Origin: Dehalococcoidia bacterium
Lineage (GTDB): Bacteria > Chloroflexota > Dehalococcoidia > Lucifugimonadales > UBA2985
Assembly (NCBI GenBank): GCA_034421015.1
Contig: DAOUKT010000024.1
Location: 16,404 to 80,403 of the forward strand
Length of the DNA stretch: 64,000 bases
Reading direction: 5' to 3'
Below, one piece after another: positions 5,945 to 31,288 of this stretch. Numbering within the stretch: the first letter of the stretch is position 1; the number at the start of each line of letters is the position of its first letter. The notes beneath the pieces were generated by a model that worked only from the letters and a program-made list of their open reading frames with translations, made no database searches and was not told the DNA's origin. A program made the position numbers and the translations under genes.

Positions 5945-8173
5945 CTAGTCCTGAACTGCCTCCGGTTCCGGTTCCGGTTCCGCCTGATTCTCGGACTCCT
6001 GCTCCTGCCCGTCACCAACGCCGCCATCCTCCATTGGGCCTCCAGTCAGCACCAGCGGCAGTCGGATTATCATCTCCGTAAACTCGCCCTTCGATGAAGT
6101 GGCGCTGATTGCCCCGCCGTGCTGCCGGATAATGTCGCTGGAGATGGCAAGTCCAAGCCCGGTGCCCTGGTCTGTGGGTTTGGTGGTGAAGAACGGGTTG
6201 AATATCTTGTCGATAACGTCGTCGGGTATCCCGTCACCATTGTCACGTATCGTGACCTCAACCTGGTCCCCCTTGAGCCGCGTAGTCAGCCAGACTGTTG
6301 GGTAGTACACCTCTGCGCCATTCCCGGCCTCCACCCTTGCCATCCGCTTCTCATGGGTGGCATAGCATGAGTTGCTGACCATGTTCAGGAAGACGCGTCC
6401 AAGGTCCTGAGGGACCACCTCCAAATCGCCCACGTCAGAGTCAAGGTCCATCTGAAGGTCAAGCTGGAACTCAGGGTTCGTGGCTCTTGCGCTGTGATAG
6501 GCCAGCTTTGAGTATTCATCCACCAACCCGTTGATGTTGGCTGCCCGGCGCTCTCCCGAGCCTCTGCCCATCATCAGCATATCGTTTACGATGCGGTTGG
6601 CTCTGCCCCCGTGGCTTCTGATGCGCTCCAGGTTGCTGCTGAGGTCCTGGGAAATATCCTGGATGAGGCCCCTTTGCTCTGAGTCTATGCTCTCACCGCT
6701 CTCATCCAGGATCTCGTTCAGCTCCGTGAGTAGCTCCTCAGAGACCTCCGAGAAGTTGTTGACGAAGTTCAGAGGATTCCTGATCTCGTGGGCCACGCCG
6801 GCTGTCAGCTCACCAAGGGCGGCCAGCTTCTCTCGCATTACAATCTGGTCCTGGGCCCTTTGCAGGTCGGCCAGGACGCTCTCCAGTTCGTCGTTCTTGG
6901 ACTGCAGCTCCTGGGCCAGCTGCTCCACCAGGTTCAATCGCTGCACCTCCAGGGCGTGCTGGCGGAATATCTCCAGTGCGGCGGCCATGTCCGCCACCTC
7001 GTCCCTCCCTCCAATCTGGACCTGGGACTCCAGGTCTCCCCTGGCCATACGCCGCATCCATTCGGACAGCAATCCCAGCCGGCGAAGGAGGACTCGCCCA
7101 ACGAACTGCCAGGCAATCAGCAGAGCGCCGGCCACGCTGCTTGCGCTGATGGCGAGCAGCAGGGTACGGCCCGTCAGAATGGCCTGGGTAGACGCCTCCG
7201 TGGCTCCCTGGACGCTGATGTTGGCCGCGCTGACCAGGCCGTCCACCTCGTTCACCAGGTCCACGGCTATTCTGTTGTTCGCATCAAGCAGGGTCCGCTG
7301 TCTATCAAGAATCGCCAGTTCCTGGGCGCGCAGGTCAAACCCGTTCCCCTCGCCCATGCCAAGATTGAACAGCCACGTGAAGATGGGAGCAAACACTGCG
7401 CGCACCTGGTTGTCCTGGAGTACCGCCACCCTGCGGTCGATCTGCCCCGCAATGGCCTCAAAGCGCTCGCGAAGCGGCTCTATGAGAGGGGCCTCAGTAA
7501 CGCTGAAGGCGCTGACAAGCAGCTGGGTGGCAACGTTGGCATCCGCCTGGATCTCAGCAAGGTTGCGATAGAGGCTCACCTCGTCCGCCGAGAAATAGAA
7601 ATCCGGATTGGCAGGTGGCTCGTCCTGACTTCTGTAGCCGGTCATAGTGTAGAAATACTGGTTGTCCACCGCCGGGACCACCGTGGCGTCAAGCCTGGTG
7701 TTGACGGTGTTGAGCTGCTCTCTTACGTCCTCTCTACTTTCCGCTACCACGAACAGCTCGTTCATGGACTCAGTCAGGAGGTCTATGTTGAGGACAACCG
7801 AGTTTGCGTAGTCACGGATCATCTGGACTCGCTCTTCCTCAGTGCCCCTGGACGCCAGGGATTCAATCTCGGCCTCAAGGGCCGTATGAGACTCCGTAAT
7901 GAGCTCAGCGGCCTCCTCAAGATCTTCGGAGTTGGTTGCCGTTGTAAGCCGCGGGGCGGCCGTCACAAGCGTGTTGCTGAGCTGTGCAATGCTGAACGCC
8001 TGCACAAGGTCCGGCACGCTCCCCTCGTTCACCCTGCTCTGCACTTCGCCAACTCGGTTGAAGGAGAACCAGCCAACGAGACTGGCTGCCACCGTCAGGG
8101 CAACCGCGGCTCCAATTACCACGTACAGCTGGGTGGAAATGCGGAACCGTAGAGCAAAGAACCGGCCAATCAT
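5945..8173 (-). CDS. Sensor histidine kinase (large periplasmic domain, HAMP, HisKA, HATPase_c)
   Basis: 742 aa with an N-terminal TM, a roughly 300-aa extracytoplasmic region and a second TM. H-box GVAHEIRNPLNF, then DNGDGIP and GTGLGLAIS. Its ATG overlaps the upstream gene's stop (ATGA at 8170-8173). Confidence 0.9.
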   Translation of the reverse strand: MIGRFFALRFRISTQLYVVIGAAVALTVAASLVGWFSFNRVGEVQSRVNEGSVPDLVQAFSIAQLSNTLVTAAPRLTTATNSEDLEEAAELITESHTALEAEIESLASRGTEEERVQMIRDYANSVVLNIDLLTESMNELFVVAESREDVREQLNTVNTRLDATVVPAVDNQYFYTMTGYRSQDEPPANPDFYFSADEVSLYRNLAEIQADANVATQLLVSAFSVTEAPLIEPLRERFEAIAGQIDRRVAVLQDNQVRAVFAPIFTWLFNLGMGEGNGFDLRAQELAILDRQRTLLDANNRIAVDLVNEVDGLVSAANISVQGATEASTQAILTGRTLLLAISASSVAGALLIAWQFVGRVLLRRLGLLSEWMRRMARGDLESQVQIGGRDEVADMAAALEIFRQHALEVQRLNLVEQLAQELQSKNDELESVLADLQRAQDQIVMREKLAALGELTAGVAHEIRNPLNFVNNFSEVSEELLTELNEILDESGESIDSEQRGLIQDISQDLSSNLERIRSHGGRANRIVNDMLMMGRGSGERRAANINGLVDEYSKLAYHSARATNPEFQLDLQMDLDSDVGDLEVVPQDLGRVFLNMVSNSCYATHEKRMARVEAGNGAEVYYPTVWLTTRLKGDQVEVTIRDNGDGIPDDVIDKIFNPFFTTKPTDQGTGLGLAISSDIIRQHGGAISATSSKGEFTEMIIRLPLVLTGGPMEDGGVGDGQEQESENQAEPEPEPEAVQD

Positions 8174-9462
8174 GCCCCGGTATCCTCCAATTCGTCATCC
8201 TCTTCGTTGGCCTCCCTGAGGGAGGTTACCGGATTGAAGCTGGCGTCCGGCCCGATAACCGTCATAAATACGCTGTCTGATCCCTGGTTATCGCCCCTCC
8301 CGTAGCGTAGCTGGAAACCGTCGATGTCAATAACGGAGGCGCCCCGCAGACTCTCCAGAAAACACTCTCGAGTGAGGTCGGCGCCGCACTCCTGCAGGCC
8401 CGCTATGGCGAGGCGACCTGCAATATAGCCCTCCAGAGAGCCATAAGAAGGAACGCCCGCCGGCGCAAAGTCGACGAGAGCGCGCATATAGGAAGCCACG
8501 ACGGGTATGGAGTCGTCATTGGGAGACGGCACAACCTGGGCCACAAACACCCCGATGCCATCGGAGCCCAGTTCCTCGGCCAGTGCGCTGCTTCCAACGA
8601 AGGAGAGAGTCATAAAGACGGGGTCCATTCCAAGCTGCAACGCCCATGATATCACACTGGCAACGGGTTCGTACGCCCCTATCAGGACGACGGCCTCCGG
8701 CTCGCCGTCTCTCAGGTCGAGCACCGCGGTCTTCACCGCTGTAGTGTTTCGAGGGTACACGCCTATTGCCACGGGCTCCATGCCCCTCCTGTCCAGGGCA
8801 AGCTGCACGCCAAGATAGCCCGCCTGCCCAAAGGAGTCGTCCTGGTGCAGCACAGCAACCCGGGTGAAGCCAAGGTCGTCCACCAGCTGCCTGACCATCT
8901 CCTCCGTTTCCTGGAAGTAAGAGGCCCGCAGGTTCACCACGTTGGTCAGCTCCGGGACCCGGAGGAATGCCGCTCCCGTAAACGGCGCTATGTAGGGTAC
9001 GCCATCCTCCACCGTAAGGGGGGTGGCCGACCGCGAAGTCGGGGTGCCCACAGCGCCGATGAGGGCAAAGACCTTCCGCTCATTTATGAGCTCCAGGGTG
9101 TTTGCTATCGCCATTTCCGGCTCATAGGCGTCGTCAAGGGACACCAGCTCCAGCTCGCGCCCATAGACGCCGCCGTTCTTGTTGGCCTCGTGGAAGGCGA
9201 CCCTGATACCCAGCCGCATCTCGGTTCCCAGCTCCTGGGCCGGGCCGCTGAACGCGGCGGACTGCCCGAAGAGGACGTGATTGTCAGATACCCCGGGCTC
9301 GGTCGGGTCTACGGTGGGGGTTGGAGATGGTATCGCGGTTGGGGGAGTCTCTGTGACATCCACTTCCTCGAAGAGAGTGCAACCAGCCAGAAGCGCCGGC
9401 GCGGCCAGCGCAAGCGCAACCCAGGCCAATCCTCGACGCAGCGAGGCTGCCACCGGGCCCAT
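8170..9462 (-). CDS. Periplasmic substrate-binding lipoprotein, LivJ/Peripla_BP_6-like
   Basis: 430 aa with lipobox LLAGCTLF and a short TP linker. The body resembles branched-chain amino acid binding proteins (FGQSAAFSGPAQELG, IGAVGTPTS). Its start abuts the stop of the preceding gene (TAA-ATG). Confidence 0.8.
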   Translation of the reverse strand: MGPVAASLRRGLAWVALALAAPALLAGCTLFEEVDVTETPPTAIPSPTPTVDPTEPGVSDNHVLFGQSAAFSGPAQELGTEMRLGIRVAFHEANKNGGVYGRELELVSLDDAYEPEMAIANTLELINERKVFALIGAVGTPTSRSATPLTVEDGVPYIAPFTGAAFLRVPELTNVVNLRASYFQETEEMVRQLVDDLGFTRVAVLHQDDSFGQAGYLGVQLALDRRGMEPVAIGVYPRNTTAVKTAVLDLRDGEPEAVVLIGAYEPVASVISWALQLGMDPVFMTLSFVGSSALAEELGSDGIGVFVAQVVPSPNDDSIPVVASYMRALVDFAPAGVPSYGSLEGYIAGRLAIAGLQECGADLTRECFLESLRGASVIDIDGFQLRYGRGDNQGSDSVFMTVIGPDASFNPVTSLREANEEDDELEDTGA

Positions 9463-9879
9463 TTAACCCCTGCGGGCGACCAGCGTCAGATGATTCTTCC
9501 CCTGCTCTCGCCTGTAGCTCATTTCGTCCATAGTGGTGCGCACTATATGGAGACCCAGACCACCAACGCGCCTGTCTTCAACAGACGACTCAATGTCAGC
9601 CTTGGGAGCATCGTTCACGGGATCAAAGGGCCTGCCGTCATCCACCACTTCAATGGTGACGGCATCTTCCTCCGAGGTTACGACTATATCGATCTCGTGG
9701 ACGCCTTCATCGTGACCGTAGTCAATGATGTTGAGTCCCAGTTCCTCAAGGACCAGGTTCACTTTGAAGACAAGGTCGAAGGGCCAATCCTCTCTAGCCC
9801 CCATATCTTCAACAAAGGTAGCGATATTCTTCAGCTCGTCGCGGCTGGTTGTTACGGTCAGGGATGCCTTCTCGCTCAC
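9463..9879 (-). CDS. RsbW/SpoIIAB-like anti-sigma-type serine kinase (HATPase_c_2)
   Basis: 138 aa. LVLEELGLNIIDYG, VDDGRPFDP and GGLGLHIV are typical of partner-switching kinases. The GTG start overlaps the upstream stop (GTGA at 9876-9879). Confidence 0.75.
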   Translation of the reverse strand: MSEKASLTVTTSRDELKNIATFVEDMGAREDWPFDLVFKVNLVLEELGLNIIDYGHDEGVHEIDIVVTSEEDAVTIEVVDDGRPFDPVNDAPKADIESSVEDRRVGGLGLHIVRTTMDEMSYRREQGKNHLTLVARRG

Positions 9880-11045
9880 TTTTCACCCCTGAGAATTATG
9901 AGGCAGGTGGCGTCATCGAATTGGGGAGTGTCGCCTGCAAAGTCATACATATCATCGAAGATCTTCTCAACGGCCTCCTTGGCGCTGCGAGCGGGCGCGC
10001 CCTCGAACACCTTCTGAAGCCGCTCCACGCCGAACTGCTCGCCTTCGGCATTCAGGGCCTCGACCACGCCGTCCGTGTACATCACAACGCACTCCCCGGG
10101 GTTGAGGGCTATTCTGTCCTCTGCGTAGTCCAGATCGGGCCACAGCGCAAGGGCAACTCCCCCTGTCAGCGGCATAAGGCTGGAGCTCCCGTCCGCCAGA
10201 ACATGAAGCGGAGGGTTGTGGCCTCCGTTGGAGTAGATGAAGATGCCCGTCTCAGGATCGTACTCCGCATAGAACACGGTGACGAACATGGCGGTCTCAT
10301 TGTCGTCAGACAGGAGGTTGTTCACCTCGTGAAGGACTTCGCCGGGGCCGGCGCTGCCGATGGCCGCGCCCTTCATCAGCGTACGGCTGGACATCATGAA
10401 CAGGGCCGCAGGGACTCCCTTGTCGGAGACGTCCGCAACGGAGACCCCTATCTTCCCGTTCTCCAAGCGGATAACGTCGAAGAAGTCCCCTCCCACGTTG
10501 CGCGCCGGGTCCATGCTGCCATAGACCTGGTACCCTTCGCCGGACGGGAACTGGTTGGGAAGAATCGACTGCTGCATCTTGCTGGCAACGTCCAGCTCGT
10601 TCTGCAGAGCCACCAGCTTGTCCCGGGACGAAAGAGCCTCGCGCCAGTCCGCAACGTGCTGCAGGGTGCGCTCTATCGTTACCTGAAGGTCCTCAAAGTC
10701 AAGGGGCTTGGTAACGAAATCGAATGCTCCCCTGTTCATGGCGGTCCGAATGTTCTTCATATCCCCGTATGCGGATATGATGACTGCCCGCAGGTTGGGG
10801 TCAACCGCCGGTATCTGCTCAAGGAGGGTGAGACCGTCCATCTGGGGCATATTGATGTCAGAGAGCACCATGTCTATGCCCTCTATCCGATTCAGTTGCT
10901 CCAGGGCCTCTATGCCGTTATGCGCAAAGAGGAACTCATAGCGTCCGGCGCGAATGCTGCGCCTCATGCGCTGCAACATCAGCGGTTCAAGGTCAGTTTC
11001 GTCGTCGACAACCAGAATCTTGTAGGGTCTATCGGATGTGGTCAA
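9876..11045 (-). CDS. Response-regulator receiver fused to PP2C/SpoIIE phosphatase (RsbU/HsbR-like)
   Basis: 389 aa. The REC domain is marked by KILVVDDE ... LSDINMPQMDG. The PP2C region is marked by GGDFFDV and TDGVVEA. Confidence 0.9.
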   Translation of the reverse strand: MTTSDRPYKILVVDDETDLEPLMLQRMRRSIRAGRYEFLFAHNGIEALEQLNRIEGIDMVLSDINMPQMDGLTLLEQIPAVDPNLRAVIISAYGDMKNIRTAMNRGAFDFVTKPLDFEDLQVTIERTLQHVADWREALSSRDKLVALQNELDVASKMQQSILPNQFPSGEGYQVYGSMDPARNVGGDFFDVIRLENGKIGVSVADVSDKGVPAALFMMSSRTLMKGAAIGSAGPGEVLHEVNNLLSDDNETAMFVTVFYAEYDPETGIFIYSNGGHNPPLHVLADGSSSLMPLTGGVALALWPDLDYAEDRIALNPGECVVMYTDGVVEALNAEGEQFGVERLQKVFEGAPARSAKEAVEKIFDDMYDFAGDTPQFDDATCLIILRGEK

Positions 11046-11140
11046 TTTAGCCCCTCAATTCCCTCAGCCACGAATTAGCATCAGTCAAGACAAACCTCCC
11101 GGTCTGCCAGTGGCCGGCCACTCGCTGAGTGCGCTGCGAT

Positions 11141-11479
11141 TCAGCCGCCGATTGCAGAGATGGCGTCGGCCTGGGAGGCGTGAATGGGGATGATCTTGTC
11201 AAACCCGCTGACCTCAAATATCTCCCGGACGGGCTCCGAGAGGGAGCAGAGCGCAAACCTTGCGTCTCTCCTCTGGAGCGATTTGGCGGTCATCAGGACA
11301 ACGCGAATGCCGGCGCTGCTGATGTACATGAGGTCTTCAAAGTTGAGGATAACCGCTCGGTCCGCGTCGTCGATTGCCGCATCCAGGTCATCCTGGAACT
11401 CCCGGGCATTGGTCCCGTCTATCCGTCCATCGGCCCTGCAGACCAGGGTCTCTCCTGCACGCTCTGATGAGATAGCCAT
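11141..11479 (-). CDS. STAS-domain anti-sigma-factor antagonist (RsbV/SpoIIAA-like)
   Basis: 112 aa. LNFEDLMYISSAGIRVVL contains the phosphorylatable Ser context. It is the first gene of the minus-strand operon. Confidence 0.85.
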   Translation of the reverse strand: MAISSERAGETLVCRADGRIDGTNAREFQDDLDAAIDDADRAVILNFEDLMYISSAGIRVVLMTAKSLQRRDARFALCSLSEPVREIFEVSGFDKIIPIHASQADAISAIGG

Positions 11480-11646
11480 TACTCTTATCTCCCAACACGC
11501 ATAGATATTTTACTAGAGCAGCCAACTAAACCAAGACTACAACAATACGTGTTGGTTAGGCAATACCCTATCTCTACCGGCAAAGCTGTACCGGAACTGC
11601 TGCAGGCGCAGGAGTCCAGACGCAACGGGTGACTTTGGGCGAAAAA

Positions 11647-12582
11647 CTAGTACGCGTCCGGGCTTCGGAACCAGTCCACCGTATTCCTCAGTCCATCCTC
11701 AAGAGAGAATCCCGGCTCCCACCCCAGGCCGCTGCGCGCCGCGGATATGTCCAGGAATATCTTGAAGACCTCCCCGGTCCTGGCAGGCCCGTAAATCGCG
11801 TCGCCGCCGTAGTCCGTCAGTCTCTTCAGCAGCCTGAAGATGTCGTTTATCGACGACCCCAGGCCTGCGCCTATGTTGAACGACTTCCCGCTTCCCTTCT
11901 CCATCGCCATGACGGCGGCCTCTGCAACGTCGTAAACGTGGACAAAGTCCCGCTCCTGCTCCCCGGCGCCGAAAATGGTAACGGGCCTGCCTTCGAGCAT
12001 CGCCTGGGAGAATATCGCCACAACCCCCGCCTCGCCCTGGGGGTCCTGCCTGGGGCCGTAGACGTTGCCCAGCCGCAGAACGGTGTAGTCCAGGCCGGCG
12101 GACTCCCCGTAGACGTACAGGTACTTCTCCACGGCGTACTTGGACACTCCGTAGTGGGACAGGGGCCGGACGGGGTGGGCCTCGTCGCAGGGCAGATACA
12201 CTGGGTCGCCGTAGATTGCGCCTCCGCTTGAGGTGTAGACCACCTTCCCAACGCCGTACTTGACGCAGTTCTGCAGCAGGTTGAGGGAGCCGCGAACGTT
12301 GGTCTCCGCATCGAGAACAGGGTCCTGCATGGACCTTTGGACGCTGATCTGCCCGGCGAAGTGGAAGACGTACTCAGGCCTCTCGTGGGCAATCACGTCA
12401 TCCAAATCCGGCGATGCAATGTCGATGTCATACAACGTTGCGCCAGCGGGAAGGTTGGCCAGCCGGCCGGAGCGAAGGTCGTCCACCACGGCAACGTGAT
12501 GACCCAGCCCCGTCAGCCTGTCGACCGCGTGTGAGCCGATAAAGCCTCCGCCGCCCGTTACAAGCGCTCTCGCGGCCGCCAT
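11647..12582 (-). CDS. NAD-dependent epimerase/dehydratase (UDP-glucose 4-epimerase-like SDR)
   Basis: 311 aa with Rossmann motif VTGGGGFIGSH and catalytic YGVSK. Confidence 0.85.
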   Translation of the reverse strand: MAAARALVTGGGGFIGSHAVDRLTGLGHHVAVVDDLRSGRLANLPAGATLYDIDIASPDLDDVIAHERPEYVFHFAGQISVQRSMQDPVLDAETNVRGSLNLLQNCVKYGVGKVVYTSSGGAIYGDPVYLPCDEAHPVRPLSHYGVSKYAVEKYLYVYGESAGLDYTVLRLGNVYGPRQDPQGEAGVVAIFSQAMLEGRPVTIFGAGEQERDFVHVYDVAEAAVMAMEKGSGKSFNIGAGLGSSINDIFRLLKRLTDYGGDAIYGPARTGEVFKIFLDISAARSGLGWEPGFSLEDGLRNTVDWFRSPDAY

Positions 12583-12723
12583 CAGGACTGCTCCCTATCG
12601 AGGTGATTCCCGTTCATGGGTGTGGAGTATATCAGAGGCGCACCGGGATAGAAAGGACGAGCGTCCCGGGCCTTTCTCCATACGGGTTGGTAACGCCAAC
12701 GTCGGTTGGAGTCTAACTCCCTT

Positions 12724-21233: not shown

Positions 21234-23063
21234 TCAAGATGGTAGCGAATCAAGCGGGTCTCCCCGTCCCGGCCTACGACGGATGCGTTGCAAAACATGG
21301 TCAAGGTGAGAACTTACCTTATTGCTATTCGCCGTATCTGATCTGCTTCTGTAAAAGTTTCGCTGGCTGAACGTACTTCCTTGCTTGGCAGAATCTTCTT
21401 TAACGTCCTCAACCACATCCGCGAGAGTCTCAGTTGCTACCTCAAACAAGTCTTCGAACCAATCTTCAATGCACTGTCTTAATGCTAGTGAAGTCTCTGT
21501 AGACAAGTATTCGGCAACCTGGGCACCATAGTGAGAACGCAAGACGCTACCTACCAACCACACTATGTACAATTCCCCATAATTGAACGGATCTCTTTGG
21601 GCTGAATCGAATGCCTTCAGATTCGTCAATACTTTTTGTCGAATGAGACTTGGCAATAACAGCTGCTCAGCGGAAATGCTGGATGGGTAAACATCCTCAT
21701 AGTGCCTTTTGCTGTCTTGTTCGCTATCTTTGTTTTCAAATATTGTTCTAGTGTCCTCTACCGCTTCACCAGGCTTGCCAATGAAGGCTAACGCAGCCTG
21801 AGCCACATCTTTCATTGCCAAATACCTGCGTTTCCCTGACTCATCAACATAGTCGCGTTTATCTGGGGTGTCATAATCCCACTCACCGGTCTTGACCTCG
21901 TAGAACCAAGATAATCGCTTAAACCCTTCCTTGAGTTGCCTTTGCTGGTCATCATTGGACTTAAACTGCTGGGCCTTTAAGCCCGTTTGAGTATTTGTGG
22001 CCTCTGCGATTTCTTGACCGATCTCCTCTTGGTCAGTCTGTGTTACCTTCAAGCTAACGAATACTTGGTCGTCAATCTTGTCGTAATTCCTAGATAAGAA
22101 CACGGTCGTTTGACAGCCGTTTACGATCTGGAAATTCCAGAATCCATATACGGGCCTCTCCGGATCGTTTTGTTCTGCGAGTGGTTCGTATCTGTTACAC
22201 AGAGCAGATAGACCGTTGTTTAGGAGGTGAAATCTTGCTTTCCGAGATCTATCTGCAAAGGTGTCGGCCATGCGGAGATACGGCCTAGCTCGACTGCCTA
22301 ACCAAAGTCTTGGATTCTGATCAAACAAGGAGAACTCATGTTGCCGAAATGCAGCAACTAAATCCCTGGCAGGTATCAATGCGTTGATAGTACTAATATC
22401 GCCGCTATTGAATTCATAATGTTTGATCAGTTGAAGCTCCACATATGGTTGCTGGGATCTGCGCTCTGACTTATGTCGATTATACAAGTCAGCAAATCCC
22501 GTCCTGTCAAAGACTTGAAGGCTAGCAGGCACGGGGAAGTCTCTGCCTTCAATCGGAAGATGGAGTCTCCTTTGGTTCTTGAAATCATCAACTAGGGCGT
22601 TGGCTCTAGCATCCAGATTTCCTGATGTCACGAATACCATGTTCAACCCATATGAGTCTTTGGGTAATACTTCCTTTAGTTTCCCGTGGAGGAACTTCAC
22701 CTCAGTGTTGTTGCAGGTACCTACTAGATCTGCGTTGAGTAGACGGAATGGGGCACTCAAGAATATGTCAAGCTGTTTCCTAGTAATGCGCCTTTGGTCT
22801 TTAGCTTGAAACAGCGAAACCAATCTCTCTTCCTCGTCAATAAGGAAACCATCGATTTCCAAATCATCCGGGCCATCTATGCGAGTATATTGTGAAGCCA
22901 AATCGGTGTCAGAGATGTTTTCCGACAGGGCCTCACCTCTAAAAACCTCAGCGAATGCCCAGTCTCTAAATGCCTCCCACTTCTCAACCCCACGTCGTTC
23001 CGCCGCTTCCGATATTAGCGTAGAGATCTCAAGCCAAGTGTTTTCCAGCACCCTTGTAGCCAT
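21234..23063 (-). CDS. AIPR-family abortive-infection protein with N-terminal PD-(D/E)xK-like region
   Basis: 609 aa in a visibly lower-GC stretch. The motif FQIVNGCQTT matches the AIPR NGxQT signature. The N-terminal DDLEIDGFLIDEE...LFQAKD resembles a restriction-endonuclease-like D..D/ExK core. Confidence 0.75.
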   Translation of the reverse strand: MATRVLENTWLEISTLISEAAERRGVEKWEAFRDWAFAEVFRGEALSENISDTDLASQYTRIDGPDDLEIDGFLIDEEERLVSLFQAKDQRRITRKQLDIFLSAPFRLLNADLVGTCNNTEVKFLHGKLKEVLPKDSYGLNMVFVTSGNLDARANALVDDFKNQRRLHLPIEGRDFPVPASLQVFDRTGFADLYNRHKSERRSQQPYVELQLIKHYEFNSGDISTINALIPARDLVAAFRQHEFSLFDQNPRLWLGSRARPYLRMADTFADRSRKARFHLLNNGLSALCNRYEPLAEQNDPERPVYGFWNFQIVNGCQTTVFLSRNYDKIDDQVFVSLKVTQTDQEEIGQEIAEATNTQTGLKAQQFKSNDDQQRQLKEGFKRLSWFYEVKTGEWDYDTPDKRDYVDESGKRRYLAMKDVAQAALAFIGKPGEAVEDTRTIFENKDSEQDSKRHYEDVYPSSISAEQLLLPSLIRQKVLTNLKAFDSAQRDPFNYGELYIVWLVGSVLRSHYGAQVAEYLSTETSLALRQCIEDWFEDLFEVATETLADVVEDVKEDSAKQGSTFSQRNFYRSRSDTANSNKVSSHLDHVLQRIRRRPGRGDPLDSLPS

Positions 23064-23242: not shown

Positions 23243-23464
23243 TCAGGAAGGCTGCTTGACGCCCAGTTCCTCAAAGGTCGGCTTCCGGATGACGTCCAGA
23301 TCATCGAAGTGCATGCTGGCGTACAGGATCTCTATACCTACCAAGCGGCCTTCCACGTCATAATCCAAGGCTACGCCCGTCGATTCGTCGAACTCAGTTC
23401 TGAAGGTATCCTCACGCAGTCGTATGTATACGGCATCTGCTTTAGGGTCATAAGTTACGTGCAT
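23243..23464 (-). CDS. DUF2283-family small protein
   Basis: 73 aa. MHVTYDPKADAVYIRL ... GRLVGIEIL is the typical DUF2283 pattern. Confidence 0.75.
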   Translation of the reverse strand: MHVTYDPKADAVYIRLREDTFRTEFDESTGVALDYDVEGRLVGIEILYASMHFDDLDVIRKPTFEELGVKQPS

Positions 23465-23472
23465 AACGCCTC

Positions 23473-24792
23473 CTACGCTCCCAGCCGCGCCCTCAGCGTG
23501 TCCAGCAGCTCAGGGATGGGCACCCGGGTCTGCTGCATGGTGTCCCGGTCCCGGATGGTGACGGCGTTGTCCTCCTCAATGGTCTGGAAGTCCACCGTCA
23601 CGGCCAGGGGCGTGCCGATCTCGTCCTGGCGGCGGTAGCGCCGGCCAATCGACTGGGCGTCGTCGTACTGGGTGACAAAGCTCTTGCGAACCAAGTCGTA
23701 CACCTCACGGGCCTTGGGCACAAGCCTCTCGTTGCGGCTCAGGGGCAGCACGGCAACCTTCACCGGGGCGATGGCCGGATGCAGGTGGAGCACCACCCGG
23801 GTGTCGCCCTCAACCGTCTCCTCGTCGTAGGCGTCGAACAGGAACAGGAGCAGGGCGCGGTCGACGCCCAGGGCCGGCTCCACAACGTAGGGCACAATGT
23901 GCTCGCCGGTCTCGTCGTCAAAGTAGTCCAGCCGCTCGCCGCTGTGCATGGAGTGGGCCTTCAGGTCGTAGTCCGTGCGGTTGGCGATGCCCATCAGCTC
24001 CCCCCAGCCCCAGGCAAACCTGTACTCGATGTCGTAGGTGGCCTTGGAGTAGTGGGAAAGCTCCTCGTCCGTATGCTGTCGCAGCCGGAGCCTGTCCGGT
24101 CGGATGCCCAGGTCCGTGAACCAGGCCATGAAGTCGTCCATCCAATGCTGGTGCCACTCCTGGTCTGTGCCGGGCTTGACGAAGTACTCTATCTCCATCT
24201 GCTCGAACTCGCGAGTGCGAAAGGTGAAGTTGCCCGTAGTGATCTCGTTGCGGAAGGACTTGCCAATCTGCCCGATGCCGAAGGGAAGCCGCTTGCGAGT
24301 GGCGGTCAGGACGTTCTGGAAGTTGACGAAGATGCCCTGGGCGGTCTCCGGGCGCAGGTAGGCCTGGGAAGCCGAGTCCTCCACCGGCCCGATAAACGTC
24401 TTGAACATGAGGTTGAAGTTGCGAGGCTCCGTGAGGTCGCCGTCGCAGTCAGGGCATGCGTCCGCCGACTCCAGGTGGTCGGCGCGGTAGCGCTGGTTGC
24501 ACTTCCGGCACTCCACCAGGGGGTCGGTGAACGTGGCCGCGTGGCCGGAGGCTACCCACACCTGGGGGTGCATCAGGATGGCGGCGTCCAGGCCAACCAT
24601 ATCGTCCCTGTCCTGGATGAACCGCTTCCACCAGGAGTCCCGGATGTTGCGCTTCAGCTCGACTCCCAGGGGGCCGTAGTCGTACGTGGAAGCGAGTCCT
24701 CCGTATATCTCGCTGGACTGGAAGATGAAGCCCCTGCGTTTGCACAGCGACACAATTTTGTCCATTTCAACCTGGTCCAGACTCCGTTCCAC
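23473..24792 (-). CDS. glyQS: Glycine--tRNA ligase (homodimeric GlyQS type)
   Basis: 439 aa with [17 protein letters not shown], class II synthetase motifs and a C-terminal anticodon-binding region. Confidence 0.95.
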
Positions 24793-24913: not shown

Positions 24914-25228
24914 GTGAAAGTAGCAGTCTTGCAGTATCAAGACTCAAGAATGGATTGGCGTCACATGCTAGAAACGAATAACTCCGAAACCAAGAGGCAC
25001 ACTCCAGTTCACAACTTGGCGCCCGGGACCATGCTGGCGGATGTGGAGAGCGAGATGCGCGTGTACGAGAAGCGCTACGAGATGTCCAGTGAAAGAATGG
25101 CTGTACTCCTGGAAGCGGACGCCATCCGCCCTACCGCCGAGGTGCTCAAATGGTACGCCGCCTTTCAAGGAGCCAAATTGCTCCGCGCAAAGACCCCCAC
25201 GACTGGAACACCTGGGACCACTACCTGA
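24914..25228 (+). CDS. Hypothetical small protein (start uncertain)
   Basis: ORF with a GTG start. Internal ATGs at 24950 and 24965 are alternatives. The core VESEMRVYEKRYEMSSERMAVLL has no confident family assignment. Confidence 0.3.
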   Translation: MKVAVLQYQDSRMDWRHMLETNNSETKRHTPVHNLAPGTMLADVESEMRVYEKRYEMSSERMAVLLEADAIRPTAEVLKWYAAFQGAKLLRAKTPTTGTPGTTT

Positions 25229-25380
25229 CCATCCACGAAAGCCGCCTGAGTCAACATCCCCTCGTAGTCAACGACACCCTAATAGTCTGAGTCCCACGCC
25301 TACCTTTGCCCTTGTATACTCATATAAGCGGGCATAACGGCTGTGATAAAATACAGCAAGCAAAATTGCAAGGGGGCAAA

Positions 25381-26889
25381 ATGGCCGTTACTCTCAAACG
25401 ACAATTGACTGACGTTGAAAAGGAGCGTGTTTTGGAGCAGCACGGCCGCGTCTGTTTTGCCACAGGCCATAAGATCCCAGAAGGCGAGGCCGTACAATTC
25501 GACCACATACGCGCCTTTGCAACAGGTGGGCAAACTGAAATCAATAACATCGCTCCGATGTGCCCTCAGCACAATAGAGAAAAGGGTACGCTCCCTCTCT
25601 TTGATTTTCGAGCCAAATTGAATCTTGGAGAGTTCTTCAGTACAGGCGACAGGCTGACTCTTGGACACTTGCTGGAATACCTTCGATCAAAGGGTAGTAT
25701 CCCCCATTATGGACTCCCCGTAGCCGTAGGAGAGGATGGAGAAAATATCCGACTCGAGTCTTCTCGTGGTATACAAGAATCTCGGGCTTATCGATGTCCA
25801 ATAACGGGTTGGAAATACTTCTACGCAACGCTTTCCATAGACCTAATCGACAGCGATGATGACCAAGACGAAGCAATCGGACTACAACCGCGCTACCTCA
25901 TATTCGATAAGGTCTTTGAACTCTTCCGGCACTTTCAACGTTTTCCGGTCCTCCAACCATCTCTGGGAAGAATCGTTGGCGACAGGATCAAATTGTTCGA
26001 CGGACAACATAAGGCGGCAGCCATTATCTGGAACAACTACAAAGAACTGGAATGCAAAATCTATATGGAGCCAGATATTCGATTGCTTAACCAGACCAAT
26101 ATCTCGGCACATGATAGATTTGCCCAAACACGCTTCTTCTCATCAATAATGATCCTGAAACTAGGGACACAATTCGGAGCAGATTTTGAGACATACAAGA
26201 ACCTTGAAGACGGTCAAGTTAAGAGTGAATCCGGGTTTGTAGACTACATTCGCAGCAAAGATAATCTGACTAAAGGCGAAGTGAACCAGCGTTTCAGGAG
26301 CTTTTTGTACAATTCCGTTCTTGGAGAAGAGAATAACCAGTTGGCGCGTCTCGTAGCTGATGGCAACTATCCCACTGATGAGAAACCTCTCACCACAAAC
26401 GCATTGTCTAATTCTTTGCTTGCTTCCTTCCTTTATCGTGAGCCAGTAGATGACAACATGGCGACTGATTCCTATAAGCGTAGCATTGAAGTACAGAACG
26501 TTATCAGGCTGATGAATCTACTTGATGACCTAGCCCTGTATCAGTGGAATCCAAACGCGTCCGCAAATGACGAGGGGCAACGTAGACTGGTGCGTTTGAT
26601 CAGAGCCAGATTTATGAAAGCTTGGTCCGAATTGCTCAAAGATGCAATCTGCGCAAATGCTAGAATCTTTGACAGTGACGATAAAGCCCGTCCATTCTAC
26701 AGGGAGTTCAACGATCAGAACTGGGCAGATATCGGAGAAATTGTGACCCGTCTAATCAACTGGAAAATTTGGAGTTCACCAACCTCCAGCGACGTAGACC
26801 AGATTCGGGTCGATAACGATAAACAGTTGAGAGACTGGGTAAAAAATAAGGGACTTACGGCTGGCTATCTGTTGGGCGCGCCTGAGTAA
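25381..26889 (+). CDS. HNH endonuclease fused to a DGQHR/DndB-like (ParB-fold) domain
   Basis: ORF 25306..26889. I prefer the ATG at 25381 (MAVTLK...), after an AGGGGG RBS. HNH: CFATGH..QFDHIRAFATGG..NIAPMCPQHNREKG. Central: RYLIFDKV...IKLFDGQHKAAAI. The region is visibly lower in GC. Confidence 0.7.
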   Translation: MAVTLKRQLTDVEKERVLEQHGRVCFATGHKIPEGEAVQFDHIRAFATGGQTEINNIAPMCPQHNREKGTLPLFDFRAKLNLGEFFSTGDRLTLGHLLEYLRSKGSIPHYGLPVAVGEDGENIRLESSRGIQESRAYRCPITGWKYFYATLSIDLIDSDDDQDEAIGLQPRYLIFDKVFELFRHFQRFPVLQPSLGRIVGDRIKLFDGQHKAAAIIWNNYKELECKIYMEPDIRLLNQTNISAHDRFAQTRFFSSIMILKLGTQFGADFETYKNLEDGQVKSESGFVDYIRSKDNLTKGEVNQRFRSFLYNSVLGEENNQLARLVADGNYPTDEKPLTTNALSNSLLASFLYREPVDDNMATDSYKRSIEVQNVIRLMNLLDDLALYQWNPNASANDEGQRRLVRLIRARFMKAWSELLKDAICANARIFDSDDKARPFYREFNDQNWADIGEIVTRLINWKIWSSPTSSDVDQIRVDNDKQLRDWVKNKGLTAGYLLGAPE

Positions 26890-26969: not shown

Positions 26970-27256
26970 TATGTGCTTGGAGAGACCAAAGGCTAGGACG
27001 GAGAGGAGTAAGGGGCAACCGTCCATCCAGCGAGTCTGGTACGGTGGAAGCAGACGTGGATTGGCCCCCTGAAGGTAGCTCCCGAGCCGCCAGAAGAAAG
27101 TCCCGGTGAGCCGGGCCGAGTAGAACTGACCGGGGTCGTCTCCCGTTATCAAGGACGAGGGCGTGTTGGCGCCCTGCAGAGCGCCCCGGCGTGCCGGGGA
27201 AAAAGGGTGGTACCGCGGGAAACGTTCCCGTCCCTTTGGGGCGGGATTTTATTTTG
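26970..27256 (+). promoter_or_regulatory. T-box riboswitch leader (tRNA-sensing transcription attenuator) upstream of ilvB
   Basis: T-box sequence AGGGTGGTACCGCG lies at 27204-27217. Stem I-like elements are AGGAGTA (27004-27010), AG bulge AGCGA (27029-27033) and distal hairpin gtctg/cagac with loop GTACGGTGGAAG. The specifier-like GAAGGTAG is at 27071-27078. The leader ends in an intrinsic terminator. Confidence 0.75.
27226..27255 (+). terminator. Intrinsic terminator of the T-box leader
   Basis: 9-bp GC-rich stem tcccgtccc / ggggcggga with a TTT loop, followed by TTTTATTTT. Confidence 0.8.
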
Positions 27257-30588: not shown

Positions 30589-31026
30589 ATGGCGCGCGGA
30601 GAAATAGCAGACCGAATCCGTGACTACCTAAAAAATGAGGTTGAAGTTGCCCGCGGAGATGGGGGACAGTACATAAAGTTTCGCGCCGGAGACATAAGCA
30701 AGGCTCTTAAGGCTCTTGGTGTAGGGAATGCCCAAGTCTGCAATGTGCTCAAGGGCAAGCAGTTTCATTCTCAGGCAAGGGTGAAACTCCTAAAGGACAA
30801 GACAACGGGGCCCCCAAGTGGTATGGGTGGAAACGTCGTGTGCCATTACGAAATATTGGGACAGGTGGCAACGGCAGAGGATTTGGAACGGGATGCGCCT
30901 GAGCCGCTGCGCCAGCAAATTCTTGGCCTGACGCCTGCCGAGTTCCAGGAGTTGACTCGCTATTATTGGATGAACAAGGGATTCTCCAAAGCGGAAATAA
31001 ATGTTACCCTGAGTATGACAGTGTAA
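30589..31026 (+). pseudogene. Possible remnant of an Mrr-type restriction endonuclease (ends at the start of the catalytic domain)
   Basis: 145-aa ORF in a lower-GC insert. The C-terminal LTPAEFQELTRYYWMNKGF resembles the first helix of Mrr_cat domains (l.p.eFE.lv..ll...Gy), but the ORF stops 16 aa later with no catalytic D/ExK region. Confidence 0.4.
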
Positions 31027-31072
31027 ATCAGCGCCTGACCATTCGCTCAGGCCATTAGGAGCATATTCAGAA

Positions 31073-31288
31073 ATGACTACAACTCAGGAAGCGCCAGAGG
31101 GTGAGCGCCTGGCGAGGCTGGAAGCAACCACAGAGGCAGTTGTTCGTGAGGTCGGCCTCATCAGGCAAGACATTCGTGATCTCGACAACAAGGTGCGTAC
31201 CTACTTTCTCTGGACATTGGGAACCCTTGTTGGTATATTGGCCCCGTCCATTATAGGGCTGATAGTCACTCTAATCCTGAAGGCGTAG
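31073..31288 (+). CDS. Hypothetical small protein, coiled-coil plus C-terminal TM helix
   Basis: 71 aa. FLWTLGTLVGILAPSIIGLIVTLIL is a clear hydrophobic helix. No family recognised. Confidence 0.4.
   Translation: MTTTQEAPEGERLARLEATTEAVVREVGLIRQDIRDLDNKVRTYFLWTLGTLVGILAPSIIGLIVTLILKA

Follow-up and report, generated by a model that had tools for sequence, protein, structure and literature searches.

We analysed a stretch of 64,000 nucleotides from a Dehalococcoidia bacterium (contig DAOUKT010000024.1, positions 16,404 to 80,403; hereafter the window), and in it a single gene, here called X, which lies between the housekeeping genes glyQS and ilvB and encodes a protein of 502 amino acids (Table 1). 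An earlier annotation made from the sequence alone (the first-pass annotation) had described X as a stand-alone fusion of an HNH nuclease with a DndB/ParB-like DGQHR domain, situated in a low-GC islet, and had proposed it as an undescribed, horizontally acquired single-gene defence nuclease. The open reading frame (ORF) containing X runs from 25306 to 26889 on the forward strand when counted from its first possible startcodon, and the ATG at position 25381 gives the 502 aa product; the N-terminus read from this ATG (MA.TL.RQL) is common to the X homologues, and a simple scan found no σ70-like promoter upstream. The GC content of X (0.43-0.49) is about 15 points below that of glyQS and ilvB (0.60-0.66), and the GC content at third codon positions (GC3) is 0.49, compared to 0.86-0.89 in the same two neighbours, which bears out the description of a compositional islet between glyQS and the ilv genes. 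The absence of dnd, ssp or methylase genes was likewise confirmed for approximately 10 kb around X by Pfam searches of the large ORFs.

The N-terminal part of X is an HNH (His-Me finger) nuclease domain, as had been claimed for the first approximately 70 residues. PF01844 matches residues 25-69 with 24.1 bits (gathering cutoff 21.4), and all strings quoted earlier are present, with CFATGH at residues 25-30, FDHIRAFATGG at 40-50 and NIAPMCPQHNREKG at 56-69. In an alignment of 75 sequences the residues C25, H30, D41, H42, N56, C61, H64 and N65 are invariant, and hence the catalytic set (D41-H42, N56, H64-N65) is intact throughout. Conservation extends to 58 distant relatives with 18-35% identity, where H42 and N56 are kept in at least 90% and PF01844 is matched by 52 of the 58 at E≤0.05. 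When a profile of these 58 relatives was compared with PDB, it matched the En domain of a group II intron maturase (2e-13), the Gme HNH nickase (1e-9), with which the HNH domain of X is in register, and EcoKMcrA (7.5e-5), as well as many Cas9 and IscB HNH domains.

The central part of X is predicted to adopt a ParB/sulfiredoxin (Srx) fold. We modelled X with AlphaFold2 on the 75-sequence alignment (mean pLDDT 85.8) and searched PDB with the whole model using Foldseek, where the top 24 matches were ParB, Noc, PadC, KorB, pNOB8 ParB and sulfiredoxin, mostly with a probability of ~1.0, and Cas9 HNH domains ranked after these ParB-fold proteins. The best match was Myxococcus xanthus ParB with CDP or CTPγS (7bnk, E 3.9e-4, probability 1.0); the ParB, Noc, PadC, KorB and Srx matches, with Caulobacter crescentus ParB among them, span E-values from 4e-4 to 1e-2, and the TM score normalised to the target is up to 0.72. 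A Foldseek search of BFVD agreed, again matching ParB/Srx proteins. Because the C-terminal domain alone gives no ParB match and the HNH domain occupies residues 1-86, the ParB-like part must lie within residues ~87-253, with residues 87-159 probably forming an N-terminal extension of the ParB-like domain. The claim of a DndB/ParB-like central region thus stands at the level of the fold and not at that of sequence families, as hidden Markov models (HMMs) for DndB (PF14072, TIGR03187), DUF262 (PF03235) and ParBc did not match X at E≤1 in Pfam and NCBIfam, nor any of the 58 distant relatives at E≤0.05, and the names of the 50 best PDB fold matches include no DUF262-family entry. DUF6551 (PF20188), whose fold is that of ParB and for which CTP or ATP binding in phage fusions has been reported, was the only Pfam family besides HNH to match the central region in two or more distant relatives; it was found in 6 of the 58 (best E 8e-5), with the one listed score (16.6 bits, P0183) below the gathering cutoff of 26.8 bits, and it did not match the X protein of the window at E≤1. 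A helix-turn-helix (HTH) domain was not detected by Pfam searches in X or in the distant relatives.

The sequence motifs of this region appear to follow the order expected of a ParB fold. X contains PRYLIFDKV...FPVLQP and IKLFDGQHKAAAI, the latter carrying FDGQHK at residues 206-211, and so the DGQHR-type motif that had been placed about 130 residues downstream of the HNH domain is present, but it reads DGQHK, with K211 conserved in at least 90% of the family. In the model, FDGQHK sits at the junction of a strand (202-207) and a helix (209-217), which we take to be the position of the GxxR box in ParB and Srx. LQPR (168-171) resembles the 'QPR' motif of ParB and LLNQTN (235-240) sits where ParB has its ENxxR box, and we infer that these motifs correspond; the order in X is QPR, then β-strand–Gly-x-x-[R/K]–helix, then an Asn-rich segment ~26-30 residues later. 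Family-wide, P170, R171, F206, D207, G208, Q209, H210, K211 and A214 are the most conserved positions outside the HNH domain, and the central motifs are invariant in the 75 close sequences and nearly invariant in the 58 distant ones. Model confidence is lowest in the loop formed by residues 239-252 (pLDDT ~37), which is nonetheless conserved, with N240, I241, A243, Q249, R251 and F252 invariant and H244 nearly so; it may become ordered only upon binding of nucleotide or DNA, and is a candidate functional loop.

The remaining 249 residues form an all-helical domain which, when modelled alone, reached a pLDDT of 92.8 and a pTM of 0.90, and for which no relative was found among PDB folds (best Foldseek match E 4.3, probability 0.05), in line with the earlier remark that this region resembles nothing recognisable. 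E283, R367, E370 and W464 are conserved family-wide. As the C-terminus of DndB has been proposed to be a HEPN domain (PMC3632139), this possibility was considered for X but found no support, there being no fold match, no invariant His and no RxxxxH motif.

Table 1. Features of gene X and its surroundings in the window (positions counted from the first nucleotide of the window; residues refer to the X protein).
Feature	Position	Strand	Description
AIPR/AbiU-type abortive-infection gene	21234-23063	-	609 aa; PF10592 1.8e-41, PADLOC AbiU 2e-30
DUF2283 protein gene	23243-23464	-	73 aa; PF10049 4.6e-16; between AIPR gene and glyQS
glyQS	23473-24792	-	Flank of X; identified via the L081 orthologue carrying PF00587/PF03129
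104-aa ORF	24914-25228	+	GTG start; between glyQS and X
AAGGGGG, Shine-Dalgarno-like	25370-25376	+	4 nt before the ATG of X; read from the sequence
X	25381-26889	+	502-aa coding sequence; HNH, beta-rich linker, ParB/Srx-like domain and helical C-terminal domain, in that order
HNH (His-Me finger) nuclease domain	25381-25638	+	Residues 1-86; PF01844, invariant columns and PDB profile matches
Helical linker and five-strand beta region	25639-25857	+	Residues 87-159; DSSP on the model; invariant W144, Y146, S158-D159-D160
ParB/Srx-like nucleotide-binding core (predicted)	25858-26139	+	Residues ~160-253; Foldseek against PDB and BFVD
LQPR	25882-25893	+	Residues 168-171
FDGQHK	25996-26013	+	Residues 206-211
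LLNQTN	26083-26100	+	Residues 235-240
Conserved loop of low model confidence	26095-26136	+	Residues 239-252
All-helical C-terminal domain	26140-26886	+	Residues 254-502; modelled alone
GC-rich hairpin followed by T-run	27226-27255	+	~30-40 nt upstream of the ilvB startcodon; no Rfam match
ilvB/ilvN/ilvC	27288 onward	+	Other flank of X; identified via L081 orthologues with Pfam annotation
Third lower-GC islet	30589-31288	+	GC ~0.52-0.54; 145-aa and 71-aa ORFs; between ilvC and leuA

This domain composition has parallels in GmrSD, SspE, DndI and BrxU, which like X combine a ParB/Srx-superfamily nucleotide-binding domain, a His-Me finger nuclease and a helical region in one polypeptide, and which are found stand-alone or within restriction-modification (R-M), bacteriophage exclusion (BREX) and phosphorothioation islands and have spread horizontally (PMC4619093, PMC11662687, PMC12839542). 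In GmrSD the GmrS part is ParB/Srx-like and the GmrD part HNH (PMC4619093), while defence by DndI, which has a DUF262 and a DUF1524 domain, requires both the Arg of DGQQR, on which its ATPase activity also depends, and the Asn of the HNH domain, which is essential for nicking as well (PMC11662687). X differs from the GmrSD type in several respects: the nuclease-first order noted in the first-pass annotation is indeed the reverse of the N-terminal DUF262 and C-terminal DUF1524 arrangement, the HNH domain is of the PF01844 (Cas9/McrA) type and not DUF1524, the motif is DGQHK and not DGQQR and is unaccompanied by a PF03235 match at E≤1, the fold matches are canonical ParB, Noc and KorB, and the C-terminal domain has no solved relative. 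The PADLOC models for GmrSD, SspE and BrxU did not match X either. With DndB and other DGQHR proteins X shares the ParB-superfamily fold and four of the five residues of the signature, and also the Q..R pair upstream and the xxxN motif downstream that are found in DGQHR domains (PMC4619093), but Lys takes the place of the signature Arg, an HNH domain is fused to the ParB-like part, the C-terminal domain differs, and neither PF14072 nor TIGR03187 gives an HMM match; dndCDE or other phosphorothioation genes were found neither within ~10 kb in the window nor among the recurrent neighbours of X in the 80 loci described below. The assignment of X to the DndB/DGQHR or DUF262 families is consequently not supported, with Lys for Arg and no match at E≤1 in Pfam, NCBIfam or PADLOC.

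The best structural matches of X are instead the canonical ParB-CTPase folds (ParB, Noc, KorB, PadC), with the QPR and Gly-x-x-basic motifs in register in a weak alignment to ParB, whereas X lacks the HTH or parS-binding domain, the ParA partner and the Pfam ParBc match of canonical ParB; because Pfam ParBc does not detect X, Pfam-based ParB surveys have probably missed it. For COG1479/DUF262, the fusion of a ParB-superfamily domain with HNH and its association with type I R-M loci have been described (PMC3632139), and a 2025 survey of the ParB-CTPase fold reported binding of CTP, ATP or GTP in many fusions, with HNH among the fused domains (bioRxiv 10.1101/2025.10.10.680097). The word 'undescribed' therefore applies to the architecture of X, which our literature search did not find named in any paper, but not to the ParB-fold plus HNH theme, which in outline is already known; X differs from it in domain order, HNH family, an HMM-undetected ParB-like domain nearer to canonical ParB, the DGQHK motif and the C-terminal domain.

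X belongs to a large family, with at least 889 homologous clusters in a collection of 5.8 billion proteins, and hence is not a chance ORF. The best 120 clusters are 56-86% identical over the full length and nearly all 500-505 aa long, and an exhaustive search of representatives (50%-identity clusters) gave 697 clusters at E≤1e-3 and 100 at E≤1e-30, with the distant full-length relatives (480-630 aa) keeping the HNH domain at the N-terminus. Sources that give a name to family members say only 'hypothetical protein', and none of the eight members held by NCBI is named. Two relatives without HNH domain (P0209 and P0269) were considered as a separate ParB plus helical module and rejected, as an HNH-bearing ORF lies directly upstream, marking them as split or frameshifted copies; in these (L090 141-1705, L091 4104-5634) the short HNH ORF is upstream of or overlaps the ParB-like/helical ORF, and the L091 copy adjoins Dcm, EcoRII-C and Vsr genes. 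Since the apparent HNH-less members are split genes, the three-part architecture of HNH, ParB-like and helical domains seems, from the sequences available, to be obligatory.

The distribution of the family is patchy. Among GTDB contigs representing one genome per species (185,579 species genomes), 414 stretches were confirmed to encode an X relative, with hosts in the Chloroflexota (Dehalococcoidia), Planctomycetota, Acidobacteriota, Verrucomicrobiota, Bacteroidota, Spirochaetota, Proteobacteria, Ignavibacteriota and Omnitrophota and in one Thermoplasmata archaeon. Across phyla the identity is 50-70%, with 60-70% within and 50-59% between phyla, and the GC content of X is below that of its flanks in 69 of 70 loci (mean 8 points) while tracking host GC (r=0.91). 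The small gap between within-phylum and between-phylum identity and the low GC that tracks the host point, on these sequence data, to repeated horizontal transfer with partial amelioration, and together with the GC and GC3 drop in the window this agrees with the earlier view of X as a horizontally acquired gene. A tblastn search found no X in PLSDB plasmids or INPHARED phages, and IMG/VR contained a single, distant relative (24% identity). A housekeeping or regulatory DNA role, with X acting as a DndB-like transcriptional regulator or as a repair or segregation factor, would draw on the existence of regulators (DndB, KorB) and segregation proteins among those with a ParB fold and on the stable synteny of X beside glyQS and ilv in the lineage of the window; the patchy spread, the atypical composition in 69 of 70 loci, the conserved and intact HNH catalytic site, the lack of dnd genes nearby and the absence of a detectable HTH domain make this role highly improbable.

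Mobility raises the question of whether X is a selfish, homing-type HNH gene, which spreads by cutting empty sites and uses its ParB-like and helical domains for target recognition and not to defend the host. The HNH domain is closest to the En domain of a group II intron maturase, and in many lineages X is a single gene between housekeeping genes with a sharp GC drop. It also recurs inside or next to clusters encoding CoxL/CoxM-type molybdopterin dehydrogenases in two phyla, in L001 (Chloroflexota) and in L017 and L018 (Acidobacteriota, all at ~6500-12600), where the clusters carry MoCoBD, FAD_binding_5/CO_deh_flav_C and MobA-like genes; an unclassified metagenome contig (L087, 2011-4542) has CoxM-type and MobA-like genes near X with no MoCoBD in view. 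This recurrence may reflect co-transfer, a preferred insertion site or coincidence. On the other side, no meaningful direct or inverted repeats flank X and there is no intron, intein or reverse transcriptase context, the insertion sites vary between lineages, with 80 loci on 80 different contigs (copies per genome not counted), and X is absent from the phages and plasmids where homing HNH genes abound. Furthermore, the closest relative of X (86% identical, locus L081) occupies the same glyQS/ilvB site, which indicates vertical maintenance under purifying selection, and we regard a homing gene as very unlikely.

Next to mobility, the company that X keeps is informative. Neighbourhoods were compared in 80 retained loci, each on a different contig, and this survey of homologues, which the first-pass annotation had recommended, found R-M and other defence genes enriched beside X. 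No neighbour family occurs in more than 10 of the 80 loci after clustering with BLAST and phmmer, and there is neither a conserved partner gene nor a conserved small ORF upstream across the loci, consistent with the idea of a self-contained single gene. The only recurrent neighbours are R-M genes, with ResIII (seven loci) and EcoEI_R_C (five) upstream, and N6_Mtase (eight), Methylase_S (five) and HsdM_N (four) downstream, and PADLOC identified 11 MTase_I and 13 REase_MTase_IIG among 141 ORFs downstream of X. R-M-like ORFs become rarer away from X, making up 12.6% of ORFs at <1 kb, 8.0% at 1-3 kb, then 2.0% and 1.1%, and finally 0% at 7.5-10 kb (0-1% beyond 5 kb), a gradient that is somewhat inflated as the seeds were drawn from X neighbours. 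By the operational definition, in which a gene is enriched beside known defence genes across unrelated genomes (with seeds taken from the neighbours), X is a defence-island gene.

In its tightest form this association is an operon-like hsdR–X–hsdM–hsdS arrangement with gaps of 0-61 bp, found in Verrucomicrobiota, Acidobacteriota, Obscuribacterales and Chloroflexota, and also in one JGI metagenome population of unknown taxonomy (18 contigs). In L007 (7460-14612), two unrelated defence-type genes are nested within one type I R-M operon, as X is followed by a PD-T4-6-like Ser/Thr kinase (1e-64) in a co-directional hsdR–X–kinase–hsdM array with gaps of 4-22 bp around X. Such loci would suit a role of X as an accessory or back-up effector that works with R-M systems, type I above all, and is not autonomous; its task might be to cleave DNA passed on by HsdR that has stalled, or to protect the R-M system in the manner of the PrrC/RloC-type genes of type I loci. 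In favour of this role, no neighbour families recur other than methyltransferase, HsdS and HsdR. However, an R-M-like gene within 3 kb was found in only 19 of 80 loci and in none of the other 61, with none near X in the window or its closest relative, and the R-M neighbours vary between type I, IIG (MmeI-like), type III Mod/Res and EcoRII-like, which fits co-location in islands better than a specific partnership. We therefore consider an accessory function unlikely.

Other neighbours of X include a SNF2 helicase, MkoA/DpdJ-like and TmtA-like proteins, HEPN_Toprim_N, the PD-T4-6-like kinase, zeta toxin and Dcm/EcoRII-C/Vsr, and insertion sequence elements and integrases also adjoin X in some loci. 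In a Phycisphaerales metagenome-assembled genome (L026, 10001-14553), an ABC ATPase with DUF3696 starts 5 bp after X and is followed by an unknown 334-aa protein, with a type I S subunit upstream of X; the ATPase matches PDC-M55A (1e-42), NsnB (8e-38) and HEC-03B. The gene order resembles a Menshen triad in which X takes the place of NsnA, the ParB sensor (ParB-DUF262 plus ParBDB) that precedes NsnB and NsnC, and was seen in one of the 80 loci only. Unlike NsnA, X carries its own nuclease, and it does not match the NsnA models; the L026 orthologue of X gave no PADLOC match.

The window itself contains an AIPR/AbiU-type abortive-infection gene in a second low-GC islet of its own (GC ~0.46), on the opposite side of glyQS and 2.3 kb from X. 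The gene is present in L081 in fragments. We rejected AIPR as a co-travelling partner of X, as a search of the 80 loci gave no AIPR homologue and only the same-lineage L081 has one. The DUF2283 protein encoded next to glyQS on the AIPR side shares only 64% identity with its L081 counterpart, whereas the housekeeping orthologues flanking X (glyQS and ilv) are 92-95% identical; no partner gene was identified for it. The 104-aa ORF between glyQS and X has no Pfam, PADLOC or NCBIfam match and no homologue in the 80 loci, and L081 has only a 184-bp spacer at its position, so that it may represent one more small insert, or no gene at all. With a third lower-GC islet between ilvC and leuA (Table 1), it seems that small foreign inserts accumulate between the housekeeping genes of this genome. 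Among mobile-element hallmarks, neither a tRNA nor an Rfam element was found in the window. The GC-rich hairpin upstream of ilvB may terminate transcription of X or act as a leader/attenuator for ilv. Farther out lie carotenoid and isoprenoid genes, leuA and ABC-transporter permeases.

The AIPR/AbiU gene nearby, and the zeta toxin and other toxin genes beside X in some loci, would also fit an abortive-infection or toxin-like effector, which once triggered degrades host DNA or depletes nucleotides via its ParB-like domain, without discriminating foreign DNA. NTPase and DNase activities are known from ParB/Srx proteins such as Osa (as cited in PMC10853773), and X has no self-protecting methylase. 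No antitoxin or immunity partner is conserved with X, and we think such an effector quite unlikely, while recognising that the sequence does not separate it from direct restriction.

The evidence from domain content, mobility and neighbourhood tips slightly, in our judgement, towards X being a nuclease that targets DNA on its own, moves horizontally and belongs to the gene pool of defence islands. As approximately three quarters of the loci have no cognate methyltransferase, discrimination between self and non-self by X is probably intrinsic, and it would most likely be achieved by dependence on DNA modification or structure (type IV-like, as in GmrSD, SspE, DndI and BrxU) or by activation only during infection. 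X would resemble the modification-dependent type IV class in being a nuclease without a cognate methyltransferase (none within ~10 kb in the window), but modification dependence is a much less certain part of this reading than the defence nuclease itself. Mechanistically, the ParB-like domain may bind a nucleoside triphosphate (NTP) and act as a switch or dimerisation gate, possibly by dimerisation as in ParB clamps or, as in BrxU, SspE and DndI, by changes of state that depend on the NTP; the C-terminal domain may recognise the target, be it a DNA feature or a phage component, and/or mediate oligomerisation; and together the two domains would permit nicking or cleavage of invading DNA by the HNH domain. 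X may thus work like the DUF262–DUF1524 enzymes, using different domain families in the opposite order. A more far-reaching proposal, which we make tentatively and regard as somewhat doubtful, is that X founds an unrecognised multi-phylum single-gene restriction system, in which a ParB-type clamp or switch with DGQHK gates an N-terminal Cas9/McrA-type HNH domain and the C-terminal fold senses an as yet unrecognised target (a modification or structure of the DNA, or a phage protein), making X a convergent, order-reversed counterpart and not a relative of GmrSD and SspE.

Several observations weigh against a ParB-gated defence nuclease. The similarity to ParB is at fold level only (Foldseek E ~4e-4, TM to target 0.3-0.7); sequence searches of PDB with the X protein and two family profiles returned HNH domains only and did not reach a ParB, and the single hhalign alignment of the family profile with P1 ParB, which places FDGQHKAAA opposite LDGSRRRAS, is not significant (E 0.024, probability 2%). 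Lys replaces the phosphate-binding Arg of ParB, DndB and DUF262, and because of this replacement NTP binding by the ParB-like domain is an assumption. No model of PADLOC-DB v2.0.0 matched X beyond a chance-level NsnC hit (E 0.047). With regard to the genomic context, the R-M enrichment was calculated without a genome-wide background, about three quarters of the loci, including the window, have no adjacent defence gene among the nearest ORFs, and the neighbours in the window are housekeeping genes. Finally, since an 86%-identical orthologue occupies the same glyQS/ilvB site, X is a stably inherited resident of the lineage of the window and not a recent arrival.

If X is a defence nuclease, it would add a compact (1.5 kb) and partner-free system, missed by PADLOC, to the catalogue of bacterial defences, and a frequent one in environmental phyla that have been poorly sampled, among them the Chloroflexota, Planctomycetota, Acidobacteriota and Verrucomicrobiota. 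Its C-terminal domain, confidently modelled and without a solved fold match, is a candidate new sensor module, and if the enzyme were modification-dependent it could join those HNH enzymes that serve as useful reagents in the mapping of DNA modifications. Where DndI has its essential Arg, X has an invariant Lys, which provides a testable handle on the role of the ParB domain. If this reading is true, the X family would represent a second, independently assembled version of the 'ParB-fold NTP switch plus HNH' design, which would help to ask whether the ParB-fold domain in such enzymes serves as a sensor, a clamp or a timer.

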